In this document: piece after piece, positions 56,491 through 64,000 of the stretch
Layout: every line of letters begins with the position of its first letter
Position numbering within the stretch: the stretch's first letter is position 1
Source of the DNA: Candidatus Falkowbacteria bacterium
Lineage (GTDB): Bacteria > Patescibacteriota > Patescibacteriia > Patescibacteriales > UBA12075
DNA: 64,000 nt
Direction: 5' to 3'
NCBI GenBank assembly: GCA_003514005.1
Contig: DOSJ01000012.1
Coordinates: forward strand, 26,508 to 90,507
The notes under the pieces: model-generated
Told to the model about the DNA's origin: nothing
Seen by the model: the letters and a program-made list of their open reading frames with translations, nothing else
The model's database searches: none
Made by a program: the position numbers and the translations under genes

Positions 56491-58731
56491 ATGCTTAAAG
56501 AACCAAAATTCGAGGCAGTCAGAATAAATCCGGACAATCGTGATGAAGAGATATTGTCCGGTTTTACAGTGGAGGAGCGCGCAGAAATTGAGAATAAGCG
56601 AAAGATTTTATCATCTTTGGCTTTTTTTATTGGCAAGGACTTTGAGATTCCCGTGGAATTGAACGAGCCAGGGAAAGGCTGGCATTGGAATTTCAAGAAT
56701 AATATTATTCGGATTGATCCGAAAGATTTGCTTGAGAAGCCGATGGATTATCTGCGCTTCGTTATATCACATGAGGGTGGACATCGGCGAATTTCGCGTA
56801 CGGATTTTATTCCAAAAGAGGTTTGGCAAGAGCCTGGTTTTTCTTTTTTGATGAATTCGATCGAGGATCCGCGCGATAATAATTTTGTGGCCGATGCTTA
56901 TCCGAAATTTCGCGAGCAGATGGAGTCTGCCTATCGGGACGACATGGATATTGAAGGTAAGTCAATCGAGAAGGCCAAGCAAAAACTGGGTTATCAGCCA
57001 CGTTTTATGCAGGCGGGTTTTGAATATATCAAACAGTGGTATCGCGATACGCATGATGACGGGATAGCAGTGACGCAAGAATTGCCAGAAGAAGTGCGCA
57101 CGGTCGTTGAAAAAACAGTTGAGGCGGCCAGAGATTCATGGTGGAAATATCCTTCCAAGGAAGAGGCGGATGCGAGCGAAGATACTATAAGCAAATATGC
57201 AGAGGCTTCATATAAGATAAATTTAAAAAAAGTGTGGCCGGAATTCAAAAAGTTAATAGAGAAAGACCAGGAAGACCAGAAGATGCAAGAATTTTTAAAA
57301 GATATGGAAGTTGAACTGGGTGAAAAACAAAGCGGCGAGCATGGCACTCCAGACAGTTTAAAAGATAAATTAACCGATCAAGAGAAAAAAGAACTAGAGG
57401 AAGCAATTAAAAAAGCGCTTGAAGATGTGAAGGAGAGTAAAAACAACCAAGACTCAGAAAATGACGAATCGCAACCGAATGAGAAAAGCGACGAAGATAA
57501 AGACGGTGATTCTATATCTGGCGAAACATCCTCTGACGTAAAAACTATCGCAGATAAAATGGCTGGCAAGCCATCCTCTACCAAGGCTCCGGACGGCAAA
57601 CCGATTGAACTTGATTCGCTTTCCGATGAATTAAAACAAAAAATCAAAGAATATATTGAGGGTTTGTCGGATGACAAGAAAAAAGAATTGGCAGAAAAAG
57701 CCGGCAAGGCAATTAAGGATTTTGAAGATGAGATAAATAAAGATTTGAAAGGCAAATTTTCTGATGAATCGGGCGAATCAGAGCCAAAAAAGGACAAAGA
57801 TGTCGAAGGTGATAAAAAGGTGGAAGTAGAAAATGATACAAGCGATAAAAATGTAGCGGTTGATTTTAGTAAAAAAGACCAAGAAGAATTCCGAAAAAAC
57901 TTGGAAAATATTTTTATTGAAGCCAAAAACGATCCATATAATAAGGCTTTGAAACAAATCGCGCCGCTGATAGACAATCTGGCAGGCGACTTGCGGGATG
58001 TATTTATCAAAAGAAAACAAGAAAGTAATGAAGCAGAATACAGAAGTGGAAAAAGATGGAATGTGAAAAAGCGCATAAAGGAGATTTCTTCAGGAATTCC
58101 TTTGTTTAAAAGCGAAGCCAGGGAACAGAAAAATAGTGAAAGTGAAGAAAAGGATTACGCACTGACTTTATTAATCGACTTATCTGGTTCGATGCGACAG
58201 AATGGAAAAATAAACGAAGCGTTTAAATCCACAATCCTTTTGGCTGAAGTTTTGCATGACCTTGATATTAAATTTGAGATTGTCGGATTTCAAGATTGTT
58301 TGATAGAATTTAAGAAATTTGAAGCAGATTTGAATAATGAGATGCGGCAAAAAATAAATCAGATGCTTTTGGAAGTTGATGACAGCAATGAAGGTGGCAA
58401 TAATAATTGCGGCGACAATAACGACGGTGAATGTCTTTTGGGTGCTTCGGAACATTTGCAAAAACAAATGGCAGAAAATAAATTTTTGATAGTTTTGTCC
58501 GACGGCGAACCGGCTATGGATTCTAGAAGAAAAAGCTCAAGTCAGCTTGACCGAGAATTAAAAGAAGTAGTAAAATATATAAAAGAGAATACCGAGCAAA
58601 AATTGATAGGCATCGGCTTGTTATCGTCAGCCGTAAAAAAATATTATCCGAATAATATCCCAAATGTTTCAACTAAGGAATTGGCAGAGATTTTAGGTAG
58701 CGTTATTCGCGAAATTATTGAAAATTATTAA
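56491..58731 (+). CDS. HExxH metallopeptidase-like N-domain, long acidic linker and C-terminal vWA domain (MoxR partner)
   Basis: HEGGH at aa 94-98 (nt 56770-56784). About 300 aa of E/D/K-rich low complexity. vWA MIDAS LTLLIDLSGSM (nt ~58176) and LIVLSDGEP. No signal peptide. Confidence 0.75.
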   Translation: MLKEPKFEAVRINPDNRDEEILSGFTVEERAEIENKRKILSSLAFFIGKDFEIPVELNEPGKGWHWNFKNNIIRIDPKDLLEKPMDYLRFVISHEGGHRRISRTDFIPKEVWQEPGFSFLMNSIEDPRDNNFVADAYPKFREQMESAYRDDMDIEGKSIEKAKQKLGYQPRFMQAGFEYIKQWYRDTHDDGIAVTQELPEEVRTVVEKTVEAARDSWWKYPSKEEADASEDTISKYAEASYKINLKKVWPEFKKLIEKDQEDQKMQEFLKDMEVELGEKQSGEHGTPDSLKDKLTDQEKKELEEAIKKALEDVKESKNNQDSENDESQPNEKSDEDKDGDSISGETSSDVKTIADKMAGKPSSTKAPDGKPIELDSLSDELKQKIKEYIEGLSDDKKKELAEKAGKAIKDFEDEINKDLKGKFSDESGESEPKKDKDVEGDKKVEVENDTSDKNVAVDFSKKDQEEFRKNLENIFIEAKNDPYNKALKQIAPLIDNLAGDLRDVFIKRKQESNEAEYRSGKRWNVKKRIKEISSGIPLFKSEAREQKNSESEEKDYALTLLIDLSGSMRQNGKINEAFKSTILLAEVLHDLDIKFEIVGFQDCLIEFKKFEADLNNEMRQKINQMLLEVDDSNEGGNNNCGDNNDGECLLGASEHLQKQMAENKFLIVLSDGEPAMDSRRKSSSQLDRELKEVVKYIKENTEQKLIGIGLLSSAVKKYYPNNIPNVSTKELAEILGSVIREIIENY

Positions 58732-58783
58732 AATATACTAATATATAAAGTATAATGCGAATACTACAAATATTTTAAAAAAT

Positions 58784-59203
58784 ATGGATATTGCATCAAA
58801 AATTAAAAAATTAATCGAAGTTGTCGGTAAATTAGGCGAAATTGGCTTGATTATTATTGAGGATGAAAAAGAGAAAGTTGGAATGCAAAAACAGATTGCC
58901 GCGGAATTAAATCAAGCGGGCGTTGCCAGTGCCAAAAATTATTTGGAAGTCATGGACTTTTTGGAAAAATCCAAAGCTTTTTATTATTTGGAAGAGACGG
59001 ATAAGTTAGACGATTTGATGCTGGAAATAATCGCGGAATACAAAACCGGTATTGTTAGTTTGCAGGATAGAAAAAATAGTACAGGTTTAAGAACGGTCAA
59101 ATTTAATCCAAATGATAACTATTTTATTTTAATCTTAAGCAGGAAGCAAGTCGAGGCATCCGGGCAATTTTTTGAATTTATTGGACCGATAGAGTCTTTT
59201 TGA
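58784..59203 (+). CDS. Hypothetical 139-aa protein, operon member
   Basis: The ORF ends 5 nt before the ATG of the AAA+ gene. No recognisable motif. Confidence 0.55.
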   Translation: MDIASKIKKLIEVVGKLGEIGLIIIEDEKEKVGMQKQIAAELNQAGVASAKNYLEVMDFLEKSKAFYYLEETDKLDDLMLEIIAEYKTGIVSLQDRKNSTGLRTVKFNPNDNYFILILSRKQVEASGQFFEFIGPIESF

Positions 59204-59208
59204 AATAT

Positions 59209-61287
59209 ATGAAAAATGAATCACAATTTAACATGACCACGCTAGTTGAAGCCGAAGATGTACAAGTCAATAAAAAGACTGAGAATCCAGAAAGGAAAGA
59301 AGGTTTAAGTAAGAAATATTTTGAAGAACGCGAAGATGTCTGTGTTTATCTTGGTGTTGAAGTGCCAAAAGGCGAGGGTGGCGATCTGGTGCCGAATAAA
59401 AGCGCTTTTGAAAATTATTATTTAACCAAAGAGGATTATATTTTACGCCGGGAAATTGCTACTTCACTGGTACTGAACAAGCCATTACTGCTTGAAGGTG
59501 GAACCGGTATTGGCAAGACTTCGGCGGTTGCAAATATGTGCGCGGATTTGAATACGAATTATTGCAAGGTGGCATTTGGACGGAATACGACTGTGGAGGA
59601 CGTGATCGGAAACAAAGACGTGGACATTGTCGATGGCAAAGAGGTTTTTCTTTGGCATGATGGCAAACTTTTGAAAGCGATTCGTGAAGGCGGCATTGCT
59701 TTTCTGGATGAATATAATTTCCAAGGGTCAAAGATTGCCGGACATGTTAATCCGATTATCGACGCAATTTTGAATGGATACAAAACAGTTTCTATCCCAG
59801 AAAATAATCACGAGCAAGTTACAGTGCATCCGAATTTTCGCCTTGTGGCGGCACAGAATCCGCCCGGTACGGAAGAAGGACAAGAATTTCCCGGTCGGGA
59901 AGTGCTTGGCTCTGAAACATTTGGACGTTGGGCTTATCATAAAATGCCATTAAAGATGAGCAAAGAAATGCGACTTAATCGGCGCAAAGGAACAATGGGC
60001 AAGAAGATTGGTATTAATATAACCGATTCTGAATTTCGCTTTTTAGGGAATGACATTCCCACTTCGGAATTGATCGATATACCCGGCATGGAGCATTGGG
60101 CGGAAAAGAGCGTGGAAATAATCGAGATGTTGGAAGAAAAATCCAGCGGCGCTGGCAAGGATATGGCCAAAGATCAGCGCCAGAAATTATCATTTAATCC
60201 GCGCTTGGAGCAGGGGATAGATCGCTATGTGGCAAAATTTTATCGTGGTGATGTAAACCAAGTCTGGAGCGATGCTTTGGAATATTTTTTGGTGAATATG
60301 TACAAATCGGATATTGATAAAGAAAAAGTGCGAGAGGCTATCCGGCAGTCGTATTATATTCCGCCCAAGACCGAGTCTAAAAGAAAAGGGTTGGATGAAA
60401 ATGATGAGGAGGATGAAGAAAAAGAAAAACAAGATTTAATCGACAGAATTAAGAAAGCAAAAGGCGAAATTCCCTCTTGGATTGTGGGTGATACTGAAGA
60501 TAGTTCAGTCAAGGCTGAAATCGAAACCGCCCCGTCCACGCCCGAATTCGCAAAAGCCAAACTCGAACTACAAAAATCCGAAACTGAAGCAATCAAAAAA
60601 TACTTTGGTAAAACAGCCGAGGCAATCGAAGTCCCGCCCATCCCTGCCGAAATCACTGCCGAACAATTCGAATTCTGGAAAAATAACAAATTTAAACTCC
60701 ATTATAGTCCAGGCATTGAAATAAAAAAAGACAATGAATTTCCAGGCATGAAGGAGAGATTAAGCGATAATATTTATGAATGGATGAAAAAAGACGACAA
60801 GGGAAAAAGTAAAATCAATATTGATTCCGCTATTTTGCCTAAAGGTTGGATATTGATTGACGAACGTCCAAAACCGCAATATGACAACGGAAACCAGATG
60901 TACGAAGACGATATTTTGGCCCCGGTTTTGGAAGACTTGCGAAAAAAGGGCTTGATAGCGGGTTATAAAGAAAAAGGCTCGCGTAATGTATCAAATGATG
61001 AATTTAATAAACCGGAAGTGAAAGAAACCTTTGCTAAGGCCTTGAAAATTAAACCCGAACAACTGGAACTTCCCAAAGCCGTCTTGTTTAATTATATCGG
61101 CAATAAATCGCATCCAGAATGGGGCAATACAAATACCTGGGAATGGTTTCAAGATGAATATACGAGCGGTAGCCGTTTGAACGGCGGCGATTCGGGCAAC
61201 GGCGGTCTTTCGTACGCGGACTACGCTTCGTCCGGCTTTCGGTTCGACTCCTTGGGTTTCCGTCCTTCGGTTCGTTTCTCTGTTTAA
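59209..61287 (+). CDS. DGR target 1: MoxR-like (AAA_5-type) ATPase fused to a C-terminal C-type-lectin/FGE-like variable domain
   Basis: Walker A LLLEGGTGIGKTS, Walker B IAFLDEYN, sensor RLVAAQNP. C-terminus WEWFQDEYTSGSRLNGGDSGNGGLSYADYASSGFRFDSLGFRPSVRFSV contains VR1. No signal peptide or TM segment. Confidence 0.85.
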   Translation: MKNESQFNMTTLVEAEDVQVNKKTENPERKEGLSKKYFEEREDVCVYLGVEVPKGEGGDLVPNKSAFENYYLTKEDYILRREIATSLVLNKPLLLEGGTGIGKTSAVANMCADLNTNYCKVAFGRNTTVEDVIGNKDVDIVDGKEVFLWHDGKLLKAIREGGIAFLDEYNFQGSKIAGHVNPIIDAILNGYKTVSIPENNHEQVTVHPNFRLVAAQNPPGTEEGQEFPGREVLGSETFGRWAYHKMPLKMSKEMRLNRRKGTMGKKIGINITDSEFRFLGNDIPTSELIDIPGMEHWAEKSVEIIEMLEEKSSGAGKDMAKDQRQKLSFNPRLEQGIDRYVAKFYRGDVNQVWSDALEYFLVNMYKSDIDKEKVREAIRQSYYIPPKTESKRKGLDENDEEDEEKEKQDLIDRIKKAKGEIPSWIVGDTEDSSVKAEIETAPSTPEFAKAKLELQKSETEAIKKYFGKTAEAIEVPPIPAEITAEQFEFWKNNKFKLHYSPGIEIKKDNEFPGMKERLSDNIYEWMKKDDKGKSKINIDSAILPKGWILIDERPKPQYDNGNQMYEDDILAPVLEDLRKKGLIAGYKEKGSRNVSNDEFNKPEVKETFAKALKIKPEQLELPKAVLFNYIGNKSHPEWGNTNTWEWFQDEYTSGSRLNGGDSGNGGLSYADYASSGFRFDSLGFRPSVRFSV
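61165..61270 (+). repeat. DGR variable repeat 1 (VR1)
   Basis: 106 bp aligning without gaps to the TR. There are 10 differences, all at TR adenines. Confidence 0.92.
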
Positions 61288-61517
61288 ATCGGATCTTTGG
61301 TTTTTTGGCCTTTGGAAATTTTATTTAACACAACATGGAGCTAATGTAGCCGGTTTGTATTATGCAAATGACGGTTCGCTCCAAAAAAGAGAAACGACTT
61401 GTTTTGGTTTGACGCGGGAAAAATGTCCAGGTATTGAGCGTGTACATTTTATACAAGTGCGACCATCCGACAAAACGGATCGAAGCACCCTTGCCAAAGA
61501 TGGACCAAGGCAAAGAA

Positions 61518-61623
61518 AGCGGTAACCGTTTGAACGGCGGCGATTCGGACAACGGCGGTCTTTCGAACGCGGACTACGATTCGTCCGGCAATCGGAACGA
61601 CAACTTGGGTTTCCGTCCTTCGG
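61518..61623 (+). repeat. DGR template repeat (TR)
   Basis: Intergenic 106-bp copy of the VRs with 21 adenines, mostly in AAC/AAT/GAC codons when read in the target frame. The 71-aa ORF-track ORF over it is not a gene. Confidence 0.92.
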
Positions 61624-61635
61624 CCGTATCTCAAA

Positions 61636-61668
61636 AGAATTCCGCTTAATCGGCGGAATTCTTTTTTT
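61636..61668. terminator. Perfect 10-bp hairpin (agaattccgc/gcggaattct) plus T7, 13 nt downstream of the TR and overlapping the avd stop
   Basis: Stem at 61636-61645 / 61653-61662, 7-nt loop, T-run 61662-61668. The avd stop codon (61646-61648) lies in the loop. Confidence 0.7.
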
Positions 61669-62044
61669 GTGGATTTTTTATCCAACCGCCAAGTTGGCAT
61701 CCGATTTCTTGTATTTGAATTTGAAGTAATAAATATTCTTTTTCTTCGATTGCACTTGAATCTTTTAAAAGTCGAATGATTACTTTTAACAAATCAAGCT
61801 GATCACTGGCTGTGTTTAACAAGTTTATCCGTTCGTAATTATATTTTCGGTTGGCCTTGAATAGCAAAATAAAAAAATCAACAATCAAATTATCGCATTT
61901 TGTACCCAAACAGTAACGATCGATTTTTGGCAATGTTTTGGAGATCAAATGCCAACTTAGATAAAAATCATAAGTCTTATGAATAATCGGAGCGCTAAAA
62001 CTTGGCTGGGGGGGGGGGGCATAATAGTAGATATCAAAAATCAA
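61646..62044 (-). CDS. avd: Avd-like accessory variability determinant (four-helix-bundle protein)
   Basis: ...LPKIDRYCLGTKCDNLIVDFFILLFKA...LLNTASDQLDLLKVIIRLL...EKEYLLLQIQIQEIGCQLGGWIK matches the pattern of DGR-associated four-helix-bundle proteins. Confidence 0.75.
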   Translation of the reverse strand: MIFDIYYYAPPPQPSFSAPIIHKTYDFYLSWHLISKTLPKIDRYCLGTKCDNLIVDFFILLFKANRKYNYERINLLNTASDQLDLLKVIIRLLKDSSAIEEKEYLLLQIQIQEIGCQLGGWIKNPQKKNSAD

Positions 62045-63063
62045 AATGCAAAATTGAATGCAATGAAATTTTTGAAGAAATTATTTGTTTAGAAAATTTA
62101 TTCGCAGCTTGGCGTGAATTTTATAAAGGGAAAAAGCAGAAAAAAGATGTCGAGGAATTTTCCGTAAATTTAGAAGATAATATTTTTGCGTTGCACGATG
62201 ATTTGAAAAACGGTAATTATCAACACTCTCAGTATGCATCATTTTTTGTCTGTGACCCAAAATTGCGACATATCCACAAAGCCTGTGTCCGTGATCGGCT
62301 TTTGCATAACGCGATTGTTCGCATTGTTGAACCAGTTTTTGAAAGAATATTTATTTTTGATTCATATTCTTCGCGAAAAAACAAAGGAACACATAAGGCC
62401 ATTGAAAGATTTAAAAAATTTGCTTGGGCATTGTCGCAAAATAATACAAAAACGGTTTGGGTGTTAAAATGTGATATTCGGAAATATTTTAACTCGGTGA
62501 ATCATGAAATTTTAATGAATTTGTTAAAAAAAAGAATATTTGATGATAAATTAATACATCTTCTCGAAAATATAATAAAAAGCTATAATAAAGAAGAAGA
62601 GAAAGGAATTCCCCTGGGAAATTTGACTAGTCAATTGTTTTCCAATGTTTATTTGAATGAATTGGATGATTTTATTAAAAGGAAACTTGGTTTTAACCAC
62701 TATACCCGATATGCCGATGATTTTCTTTTGGTAAGTAAAAGAAAATCAGAACTTTTGGCTATATTGGAAGATATTGGAAAATTTTTAGAAGATAAGTTGA
62801 AATTGTCATTGCACCCCAAAAAAGTAATAATTCAAAAATGGCATCAGGGTGTTGATTTTCTTGGTTATAAGATTTTTCCACACCATATATTATTACGGAC
62901 AAAAACCAAAAAGCGAATTTTAATGAAAATGAAAATATTTAAGAAAAAGTTAATATCTGGAAACATAAATAAAAATAATTTTGAGCAATCCAAAAATTCG
63001 TATTTGGGAATATTAAAACACTGTTTTGGACACAAAATAGAATGTATACTAAAAAATAATTAA
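62002..63063 (+). CDS. DGR reverse transcriptase
   Basis: RT motifs VLKCDIRKYFNSVNH, GIPLGNLTSQLFSNVYLNELD (the DGR-typical SQ motif), YTRYADDFLLVS (YxDD), GVDFLGYKIF. The start is uncertain: the only canonical in-frame start is TTG at 62002, upstream of the G12 tract. Confidence 0.9.
   Translation: MAGGGGHNSRYQKSKCKIECNEIFEEIICLENLFAAWREFYKGKKQKKDVEEFSVNLEDNIFALHDDLKNGNYQHSQYASFFVCDPKLRHIHKACVRDRLLHNAIVRIVEPVFERIFIFDSYSSRKNKGTHKAIERFKKFAWALSQNNTKTVWVLKCDIRKYFNSVNHEILMNLLKKRIFDDKLIHLLENIIKSYNKEEEKGIPLGNLTSQLFSNVYLNELDDFIKRKLGFNHYTRYADDFLLVSKRKSELLAILEDIGKFLEDKLKLSLHPKKVIIQKWHQGVDFLGYKIFPHHILLRTKTKKRILMKMKIFKKKLISGNINKNNFEQSKNSYLGILKHCFGHKIECILKNN
62008..62019. repeat. G12/C12 homopolymer inside the overlapping 5' ends of avd (PPPQ) and the RT ORF (GGGG)
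   Basis: Counted directly: 12 consecutive G on the plus strand. Confidence 0.95.
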
Positions 63064-63069
63064 AATATT

Positions 63070-64000
63070 ATGCCAAAAGAACAATTTGAAATGACAATTC
63101 CACCAACGCCGGACTCTGCTGACGTGGCAGAAATCAGAAAAGAACAAAAACAAAGAGCCAGTGAATTGAATAGTGAAATAAAAAATATCCAAGGCGAAAA
63201 AAGTCTTGAGGATTTAAGCATTGACGAGCTTCGGAAAGTGCTGGCGTTATATGAGGATATAAAAAACATTGCGACAGCTGAAACCGTTCCATCCACTCCT
63301 GAATTTGCTCAAGCCAAACTCGAACTGCAAAAATCCGAAACTGAAGCCGTGAGTAAATATTTTGGTAAAAAAATTGAAGTCCTGCCAGTTCCCACCCAAA
63401 TCACAGTTGAACAATTCGAGTTTTGGAAACAAAACCAATTTGAACTTCATTATTGCCCAGGCACAGAAATAAAAGAGGACAGCAAGTTTCCAGGTATGAA
63501 AAAAGGACTAGACGAAGACATATATAAACGGATAAAAGACGGAAGCATTACCCCTGACTCTGCCACCTTGCCAAAAGGCTGGATACTGATTGATGCACGG
63601 CCCAAACCGAATTATGACAATGGCGACCAGATGTATGAAAATGATATTTTGGAAGAGGTTATGGAAAAGTTAAGAATTGCCGGTCAAATCGAAGATTTTA
63701 AACACAAAGGCTCCAGATTCAATTGTTCCTGGGATGAACTAGACAAAGAAATAGTAAAAAAAGCAGTCGCTGAAGTATTAAAAGTCAGACCGGAACAATT
63801 AGAAATGCCAAGTGCCGCTCTATTTAATTATATCGGCAATAAAACCCATTCCGAATGGGGTAAAACAGATACTTGGGAATGGTTTCAGGACAAATTTAAA
63901 AGCGGTTACCGTTTGGACGGCGGTGATTCGGACGACGGCGGTCTTTCGGACGCGGGCTACGCTTCGTCCGGCGATCGGTACGACTACTTGGGTTTCCGTC
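63070..64000 (+). CDS. DGR target 2 (3'-truncated by the window end): stand-alone paralog of the variable C-terminal module
   Basis: Hand translation from ATG 63070: MPKEQFEMTIPPTPDSADVAEIRKEQ...STPEFAQAKLELQKSETEAV...WEWFQDKFKSGYRLDGGDSDDGGLSDAGYASSGDRYDYLGFR. About 235 aa are collinear with the C-terminus of target 1. Not in the ORF track because no stop codon falls inside the window. Confidence 0.85.
   Translation, partial: MPKEQFEMTIPPTPDSADVAEIRKEQKQRASELNSEIKNIQGEKSLEDLSIDELRKVLALYEDIKNIATAETVPSTPEFAQAKLELQKSETEAVSKYFGKKIEVLPVPTQITVEQFEFWKQNQFELHYCPGTEIKEDSKFPGMKKGLDEDIYKRIKDGSITPDSATLPKGWILIDARPKPNYDNGDQMYENDILEEVMEKLRIAGQIEDFKHKGSRFNCSWDELDKEIVKKAVAEVLKVRPEQLEMPSAALFNYIGNKTHSEWGKTDTWEWFQDKFKSGYRLDGGDSDDGGLSDAGYASSGDRYDYLGFR
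63901..64000 (+). repeat. DGR variable repeat 2 (VR2; first 100 of 106 bp visible)
   Basis: 10 differences from the TR. Nine are at TR adenines and one is a synonymous C->T (GGC->GGT). Confidence 0.9.

Follow-up and report, generated by a model that had tools for sequence, protein, structure and literature searches.

In a 64,000-nucleotide stretch of a Candidatus Falkowbacteria genome (GenBank assembly GCA_003514005.1, contig DOSJ01000012.1, positions 26,508 to 90,507; hereafter the window), a diversity-generating retroelement (DGR) carries an uninterrupted run of 12 G exactly where its two divergent genes, avd on the minus strand and the reverse transcriptase (RT) gene on the plus strand, overlap head to head. 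We propose that this G tract probably switches the DGR on and off, in that slipped-strand mispairing would rephase avd and RT together, a reading that builds on the frames of the two genes and on the behaviour of the tract in related DNA. A phase switch of this kind had been put forward before, and the original prediction gained in silico support from length polymorphism of the tract, its conserved position and the frame logic, but the starts that matter are likely two ATG codons and not the TTG codons at which the window's open reading frames (ORFs) begin. The wider proposal, that a dedicated contingency switch for hypermutation itself has arisen in a large clade of Patescibacteria DGRs, under which most cells would be OFF and a minority ON, we regard as evenly balanced. 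To our knowledge, the regulation of DGR mutagenesis is largely unknown, and the same is true of why many DGRs look inactive in metagenomes.

Reading frames across the G tract

The G12/C12 homopolymer proposed as the slipped-strand switch occupies 62008..62019 (assigned to neither strand) and, as first described, is translated as GGGG in the RT frame and as PPPQ in the avd frame, that is, as Gly4 and as Pro3 in the context A-PPP-Q. In the window's population it is flanked as AAAACTTGGCT-(G)n-CATAATAGTAGAT, where n is the number of G. The claim that such a run is very unexpected in this DNA also held, with approximately 0.001-0.002 G/C runs of at least 12 nt expected in the window under i.i.d. 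(independent, identically distributed) or first-order Markov models. The GC content is 39.5% across the window and 30% around the tract, and the longest other G or C run in the 64 kb is 5 nt, which leaves the tract as the sole G/C run above that length.

For the window's allele (n = 12), we confirmed that the RT ORF begins at TTG 62002 and that avd and RT overlap by 43 nt when both are counted from TTG starts. The codon 62044-62042, previously given as an avd ATG, reads TTG (62042..62044, minus strand) and is the sole canonical in-frame avd start when n = 0 mod 3. Beyond the tract, each gene has a further ATG, not reported previously, and both are out of frame at n = 12. The avd ATG (plus-strand CAT; 62020..62022, minus strand) abuts the 5′ side of the C-tract, and the RT ATG (61979..61981, plus strand) is the antisense of the avd His codon in the motif S/P-I-I-H-K; each comes into frame only if n = 1 mod 3, opening avd with MPPPPQPSFSAPIIHK... 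and RT with MNNRSAKTWLGGGGHNS..., respectively. The head-to-head, codon-aligned coding overlap between these ATGs (61979..62022) is 44 nt long in the window and becomes 45 nt at n = 13. The gene organisation is unusual in that each ATG is a His codon of the other gene, the avd ATG being read as His in the RT frame and the RT ATG lying antisense to a conserved avd His codon, and in that one repeat yields both a poly-Gly and a poly-Pro stretch.

The locus was then rebuilt in silico with n = 7 to 18 to read both frames, and a length change of +/-1 frameshifted both N-termini together, as had been predicted. At n = 1 mod 3 (10, 13, 16, 19), ATG starts are in frame for avd and RT at once, a co-phasing that arises because the overlap is codon-aligned on either side of the tract. 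At n = 0 mod 3, the phase of the window's allele, only TTG 62002 (RT) and TTG 62044 (avd) remain, and at n = 2 mod 3 there is no start ahead of the conserved N-terminal part, leaving a 290-aa RT and a 100-aa Avd. The N-terminal peptides predicted across the phases are MNNRSAKTWLGGGG(H), MPPPPQPSF and MAGGGGHNS.

The tract lies inside the 5′ coding region of avd, there being no start between it and the Avd domain, and inside that of RT if RT starts at ATG 61979 or at TTG 62002. No canonical in-frame avd start occurs between the tract and the SIIHK motif (P-I-I-H-K in the window) in any lineage examined; the Avd profiles begin at aa 19-20, and the conserved helix 1 starts 6-10 codons from the tract. 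Because no lineage has a canonical avd start between the tract and the first conserved helix, avd appears to be the most consistent target of the tract, and RT would be affected in most lineages but not in all (the exceptions being L003, L005 and L027). We infer that the ATGs at 61979 and 62022, rather than the TTGs, are most likely the functional starts, in which case the n = 12 allele of the window most likely represents a non-canonical state, weak or off.

Under this proposal, the tract would act as a hypermutable simple-sequence repeat (SSR) within an approximately 45-nt, head-to-head and codon-aligned avd/RT overlap. RT would start at ATG 61979 and run through the tract as poly-Gly, avd would start at ATG 62022 and run through it as poly-Pro, and slipped-strand mispairing would alter n and rephase both genes at once. 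Expression would be expected to follow the phase, with both ATGs available and the DGR ON at n = 1 mod 3, only the TTG starts available and expression weak or uncertain at n = 0 mod 3, as in the window, and the DGR OFF at n = 2 mod 3, where the 290-aa RT and 100-aa Avd would be made. DGR cDNA synthesis requires the RT-Avd complex, and tract phase would consequently toggle mutagenic retrohoming in a stochastic and reversible manner; such a switch would presumably be maintained by selection. In silico, changes in length do move the genes between in-frame and out-of-frame states, and the matching gene products are found in databases; judged from the sequence, the locus appears to match the defining features of slipped-strand translational phase variation.

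Shine-Dalgarno (SD)-like motifs were found within 20 nt upstream of only 2 of the 33 long ATG-started ORFs of the window, and translation initiation in this Candidatus Falkowbacteria genome appears to be SD-independent; with SD motifs so rare, start choice is hard to predict. A role of the G run as an SD-like element for RT was rejected given this rarity and the distance of 48 nt to the nearest plausible downstream start. An alternative genetic code (UGA = Gly) that would rescue the out-of-frame ATGs was likewise rejected, as TGA read-through recovers no RT motifs (judged by eye) and the other genes of the window are normal in code 11.

With the two genes divergent and the tract central between them, it could instead tune transcription, whether through the spacing or geometry of divergent promoters or through a G-quadruplex or roadblock between the template repeat (TR) transcript and RT, and a weak promoter-like match at 61958-61987 would put a transcription start just upstream of the tract. 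However, the promoter scan found no -35/-10 hexamer pair bracketing 62008-62019, leaving the earlier suggestion of altered divergent-promoter spacing without support, and promoter-like matches numbered 5 compared to 3.2 +/- 1.6 in shuffles. Moreover, the ORF architecture sets the tract downstream of both start codons, and no known RNA family was found by Rfam in 61000-63200 (the sole match, E = 0.72, falls far under its gathering score). We regard transcriptional tuning as highly improbable.

Length variation and conservation of the tract

Assemblies of the window's population were found by exact look-ups of the window's proteins and of predicted RT variants in GenBank metagenome-assembled genomes (MAGs), JGI, ENA and Logan. 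They represent a Candidatus Falkowbacteria population from Rifle groundwater, and all length data are from Illumina short-read assemblies. The tract had n = 12 in the window and L010, n = 13 in L017, L018 and L019, n = 14 in L012 and L023, and n = 19 in L020; in L014 (at least 15 G), L015 and P0005 (at least 21 G) the contig ended inside the tract, L025 had a scaffold gap at the tract, and L013 showed a fold-back artefact at the contig end. Across assemblies the flanks of the tract contained 0 mismatches in 1308 + 1981 nt, and the consensus of the TR and of the two variable repeats, VR1 and VR2, was identical in all of them. The heterogeneity in tract length implied by the original prediction is therefore present at the assembly level, with n = 12, 13, 14 and 19 in otherwise identical 3.3-kb flanks and with 10, 11 and 13 in a second lineage. 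In line with this, proteins predicted for all three phases are present in databases (353, 361, 363 and 290 aa), the 361-aa RT (KKQ65557.1) occurs in n = 13 assemblies, and GenBank versions of one RT measure 290, 344, 353, 355 and 361 aa.

Three GenBank MAGs, L011/L024 (GCA_000992575.2), L021 (GCA_000992765.1) and L022 (GCA_000992745.1), carry deletions abutting the tract (window 61971-62034), with sizes of 37 nt, 24 nt and the tract plus 15 nt. Since re-assemblies of similar contigs lack them, these deletions are probably mis-joins at poly-G that corrupt the avd and RT annotations.

Relatives were found by scans of genome and metagenome contigs and by protein search, with RT identities of 50-67%, all of them in Patescibacteria. 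In eight DNA-verified lineages (RT identity 55-67%) the tract stands at the same position with lengths from G7 to G19, and the comparison with orthologous DGRs was thus positive, related Patescibacteria DGRs keeping a G/C homopolymer of 7-19 nt in the avd/RT overlap. The tract reads G7 in L001 (= L005), G9 in L003, G10 in L002 (= L008), G12 in L026, G11 in L029, and G9 and G10 in L027 and L028, respectively. In L030-L033 (Parcubacteria, KKP90472), n was 10 on 8 contigs, 11 on 4 and 13 on 1, with flanks identical over 2.2 kb and an Avd without any start in the observed phases. That the tract is purely an artefact of assembly or of poly-G chemistry was rejected, as it is properly flanked on both sides in eight lineages from independent studies and assemblers.

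A few alleles depart from this pattern. The tract is broken by a single T in two of them, G4TG5 in L006 (~2499-2508), a low-coverage member of the L002 lineage, and G10TG as deduced for P0136, which are either G-to-T sequencing errors in poly-G or locked switch alleles. In P0158 (cluster of P0101), on a 1.2-kb contig, the RT call opens MWGGGGGGGGGGDK, implying at least 30 G; this long Gly run probably arose when the assembler ran on through the homopolymer, although an exceptionally long allele could also account for it. In addition, the Avd of L005 (2300-2474; = L001) is without approximately 25 residues (the FPKK-DRYTLG segment) compared to its relatives and may be shortened or degenerate.

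An equivalent of the avd ATG is present and codon-aligned with the RT frame in 8/8 tract lineages, and in each of them one phase restores it; the same phase also gives an RT ATG in seven of the eight, with L027 (avd only) as the exception, and the RT start in that phase is M-(N/D)-N-R-like, the antisense of SIIHK. The consensus alleles of L026 (G12) and L029 (G11) are in the both-ATG phase and those of the other relatives are not. Three further 90% clusters (P0101/P0155/P0158, P0067/P0143 and P0103/P0140) include members with frame-shifted N-termini left of the Gly run, and control clusters without the tract have uniform N-termini.

A census of the N-terminal region upstream of the IISLENLF motif in the 117 nearest RT cluster representatives found at least three consecutive Gly 10-20 aa upstream of this motif in 43 (about 37%), GG only in 19, a long extension without GG in 36, a short MF(D/E)KIIS-type N-terminus in 8 and a truncated one in 11. 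Of the 43 RT homologs with such a Gly run, 38 have His, the antisense of the avd ATG, after it. Relatives without the tract keep the same ATG/ATG overlap (L007, with RT MNNRIVLL...H and avd METDT..., and also P0018 and P0024), which suggests that the ATG-ATG arrangement is the ancestral functional configuration. In L004, the avd and RT ATGs abut back to back.

Weighing the switch against other readings

Several observations weigh against such a switch, and the first of them concern the length data. Two contigs of 98,684 and 98,686 nt, probably from one sample, differ only in having n = 12 versus n = 14, and two assemblers produced different lengths, G9 (L027) and G10 (L028), from a single SRA run, which suggests that part of the length variation may be technical. 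Taken further, these cases would fit a view in which the length differences are purely technical, one fixed n being blurred by Illumina phasing errors, PCR stutter and assembler choice, and the breaking of contigs at the tract and the odd deletions beside it in three GenBank MAGs would fit as well. We consider this very unlikely, as the 12-19 range is too wide for stutter, n = 19 was obtained from two independent assemblies (L020, L021) and n = 13 from three (L017-L019), lengths clearly differ between lineages (7 to 19), and G/C runs of such length are, as far as we know, hypermutable in every bacterium measured. That the range is wide, that different assemblers reproduce n = 13 and n = 19, and that lineages differ in length argues for much of the variation being biological. 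A further point against the switch is that, at the consensus level, the VR sequences are the same whether an assembly is in the ON or the OFF phase.

The second group of observations concerns the RT start. In L003 and L005, RT has starts that lie downstream of the tract and do not depend on it, a few relatives (e.g. L004) start RT at MFDKIIS with no extension, which indicates that the RT extension is dispensable in some lineages, and in L027 (817-840) a TAA, the antisense of an avd Leu codon TTA, shuts the RT frame right after G9. The L027 RT has no possible upstream start and no canonical start before the ENLF motif, with ATT where L004 has ATG, and either belongs to a DGR in decay or hints at non-canonical initiation.

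These starts bring up the alternative that the tract is slippery yet not a selected switch, with both proteins starting downstream at non-canonical codons and the tract near-neutral in leaders or intergenic sequence. For RT, ATT 62068 is a candidate, and the corresponding codon is ATG in L004 and TTG in L003; the window, L026, L027 and L029 all have ATT at the site that aligns to the Met of MFDKIIS-type RTs, the TAA after the tract closes the L027 frame, and start choice is hard to predict in a genome without SD use. We nevertheless find this alternative quite unlikely. Every lineage examined has an open RT frame between the tract and the IISLENLF motif, codon alignment of the avd ATG holds in all eight lineages and the His after the Gly run is nearly as regular (38/43), and avd is without a canonical start past the tract, though helix 1 begins only 6-10 codons away. 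Furthermore, neutral homopolymers of 9-19 nt should decay, and the tract persists across lineages with RTs that are only 55-67% identical.

Finally, most consensus alleles lie outside the both-ATG phase, which fits a switch that is mostly OFF but fits equally well a locus in which the ATGs are irrelevant. This holds in several lineages (12 and 14; 10, 11 and 13; 10; 9; 7), in which the DGR is nonetheless intact with A-specific TR/VR mismatches, and would be accounted for by a dimmer rather than a switch, where RNA polymerase slippage on the 12-19-nt run or ribosome shifts on CCC/GGG would yield low constitutive Avd and RT at any length. RNA polymerase does slip at tracts of 9 nt or more (A/T runs). 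We consider the dimmer unlikely, because the sign of the required correction differs (+1 for the window, -1 for L002 and L003), whereas programmed slippage sites are fixed out of frame, because in-frame alleles exist (L017-L020, L026 and L029), and because in Neisseria and Campylobacter clean ON/OFF phenotypes that depend on DNA length result from poly-G tracts of 8-17 nt. A programmed frameshift of fixed direction was rejected for the same disagreement among lineages. On balance we favour a slipped-strand switch that would act on avd throughout and on RT in most lineages.

The retroelement and its comparison with known systems

The locus is a complete DGR with RT, Avd, TR and two VRs. At n = 12, the avd ORF (61646..62044, minus strand, from TTG 62044) encodes an Avd domain at aa 20-124, matched by Pfam bAvd (E = 1.4e-14, aa 20-124, 54.9 bits vs a cut-off of 40) and by NCBIfam DivGenRetAVD (E = 4e-20, aa 19-123, 72 bits, under its cut-off of 80). 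The RT ORF at n = 12 (62002..63063, plus strand, from TTG 62002) contains the motif IPLGNLTSQLF and matches RVT_1 (E = 2.6e-28), and its nearest homologs are Patescibacteria DGR RTs. The TR (61516..61625, plus strand) shows mismatches to both VRs almost only at TR adenines, one mismatch to VR2 being C to T and not at a TR adenine. Target gene 1 (59200-61287) carries VR1 (61165..61292, plus strand) at its 3′ end, and target gene 2 (from 63070) likewise carries VR2 (63899..64000, plus strand), which continues past the window end.

Target 1 encodes a MoxR-like ATPase (AAA_5) whose C-terminus is diversified, and target 2 has this C-terminal region in common with it. Target 1 adjoins a CobT-like VWA protein (56491-58731) and a 139-aa protein within a block spanning 56491-61287, and a hypervariable AAA+/VWA module is unusual as a target of a DGR. 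Between secY and the VWA/AAA/DGR block lies a gene for an AbiEii-family toxin, preceded by a small ORF (window ~55.7-56.4 kb; L010 3061-3675), and the DGR cassette looks like part of a small accessory island directly after the ribosomal-protein/secY operon. On the plus strand lie 31 of the 33 long ORFs of the window, avd being an exception.

A hairpin (61637..61668, plus strand), with a 9-bp perfect stem (~11 bp in the fold) and a T7 run, begins 12 nt after the TR and holds the avd stop codon in its loop. It has a folding energy of -18.4 kcal/mol (z = -4.4) and could terminate transcription in both directions or form a structural part of the DGR RNA; the terminator scan made no call at this hairpin. 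As for a viral origin, the RT scan of viral contigs gave no match.

If the proposed switch is real, a heritable and reversible ON/OFF switch in a single tract would explain inactive-looking DGRs for a widespread clade of the candidate phyla radiation (CPR), and a subpopulation could explore while the adapted VR alleles are kept in the rest. Among CPR bacteria it would be the first regulator of DGR activity to be described, and among SSRs the first to phase-vary two antiparallel overlapping genes at once. In practical terms, the tract breaks contigs and yields truncated or mis-started avd and RT annotations, and DGR-finding pipelines may score such elements as defective.

Translational phase variation by slipped-strand mispairing is known from poly-G/C genes of Neisseria, Haemophilus and Campylobacter (hmbR/hpuA, lgtA/C/G and the Campylobacter G8-G13 tracts). 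The Falkowbacteria locus resembles these genes in its long G/C run near the 5′ end of a coding sequence and its frame-based ON/OFF logic, in the polymorphism of tract length between otherwise identical genomes, and in a tract that is kept among relatives while its length varies. Unlike them, it has one tract for two opposite-strand genes by way of a codon-aligned head-to-head overlap, the genes in question form a mutagenesis machine (RT and Avd) rather than a surface or modification function, the host is an environmental member of the Patescibacteria and not a host-adapted pathogen, and three states can be distinguished (ATG/ATG, TTG/TTG and none). One tract between divergent genes also co-regulates both in the hifA/hifB fimbrial switch of Haemophilus influenzae (TA repeats, overlapping divergent promoters), but there the repeat is part of the promoter spacer and affects transcription, whereas the tract here lies in both coding regions and would act on frame.

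As a DGR, the locus shares with that of Bordetella phage BPP-1 (avd-TR-brt) and with Patescibacteria DGRs an IGNLTSQ-type RT, an Avd four-helix bundle, adenine-specific TR/VR mismatches and C-terminal VRs, and it differs from BPP-1 and the surveyed Patescibacteria DGRs in having avd on the opposite strand, head to head with RT, with a homopolymer in the overlap. Patescibacteria DGRs correspond to clade 2 of Roux et al. 2021 (PMC8144416) and to the CPR set of Wu et al. 2018 (PMC5758913), and neither survey mentions homopolymers or phase variation. Full-text literature searches likewise gave no published link of DGRs to homopolymers or phase variation, Paul et al. 2017 standing outside this comparison.

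Phasevarions and switchable mutators (SSR-controlled mod methyltransferases and repeat-mediated mutL on/off alleles) are similar in that a hypermutable repeat toggles a gene that diversifies the population, a form of second-order evolvability; their output is methylation or a change in global mutation rate, unlike the targeted hypermutation of two proteins by reverse transcription here. Relative to known phase variation, what is new is that one tract serves two antiparallel overlapping genes and that the target is itself a mutagenesis system.

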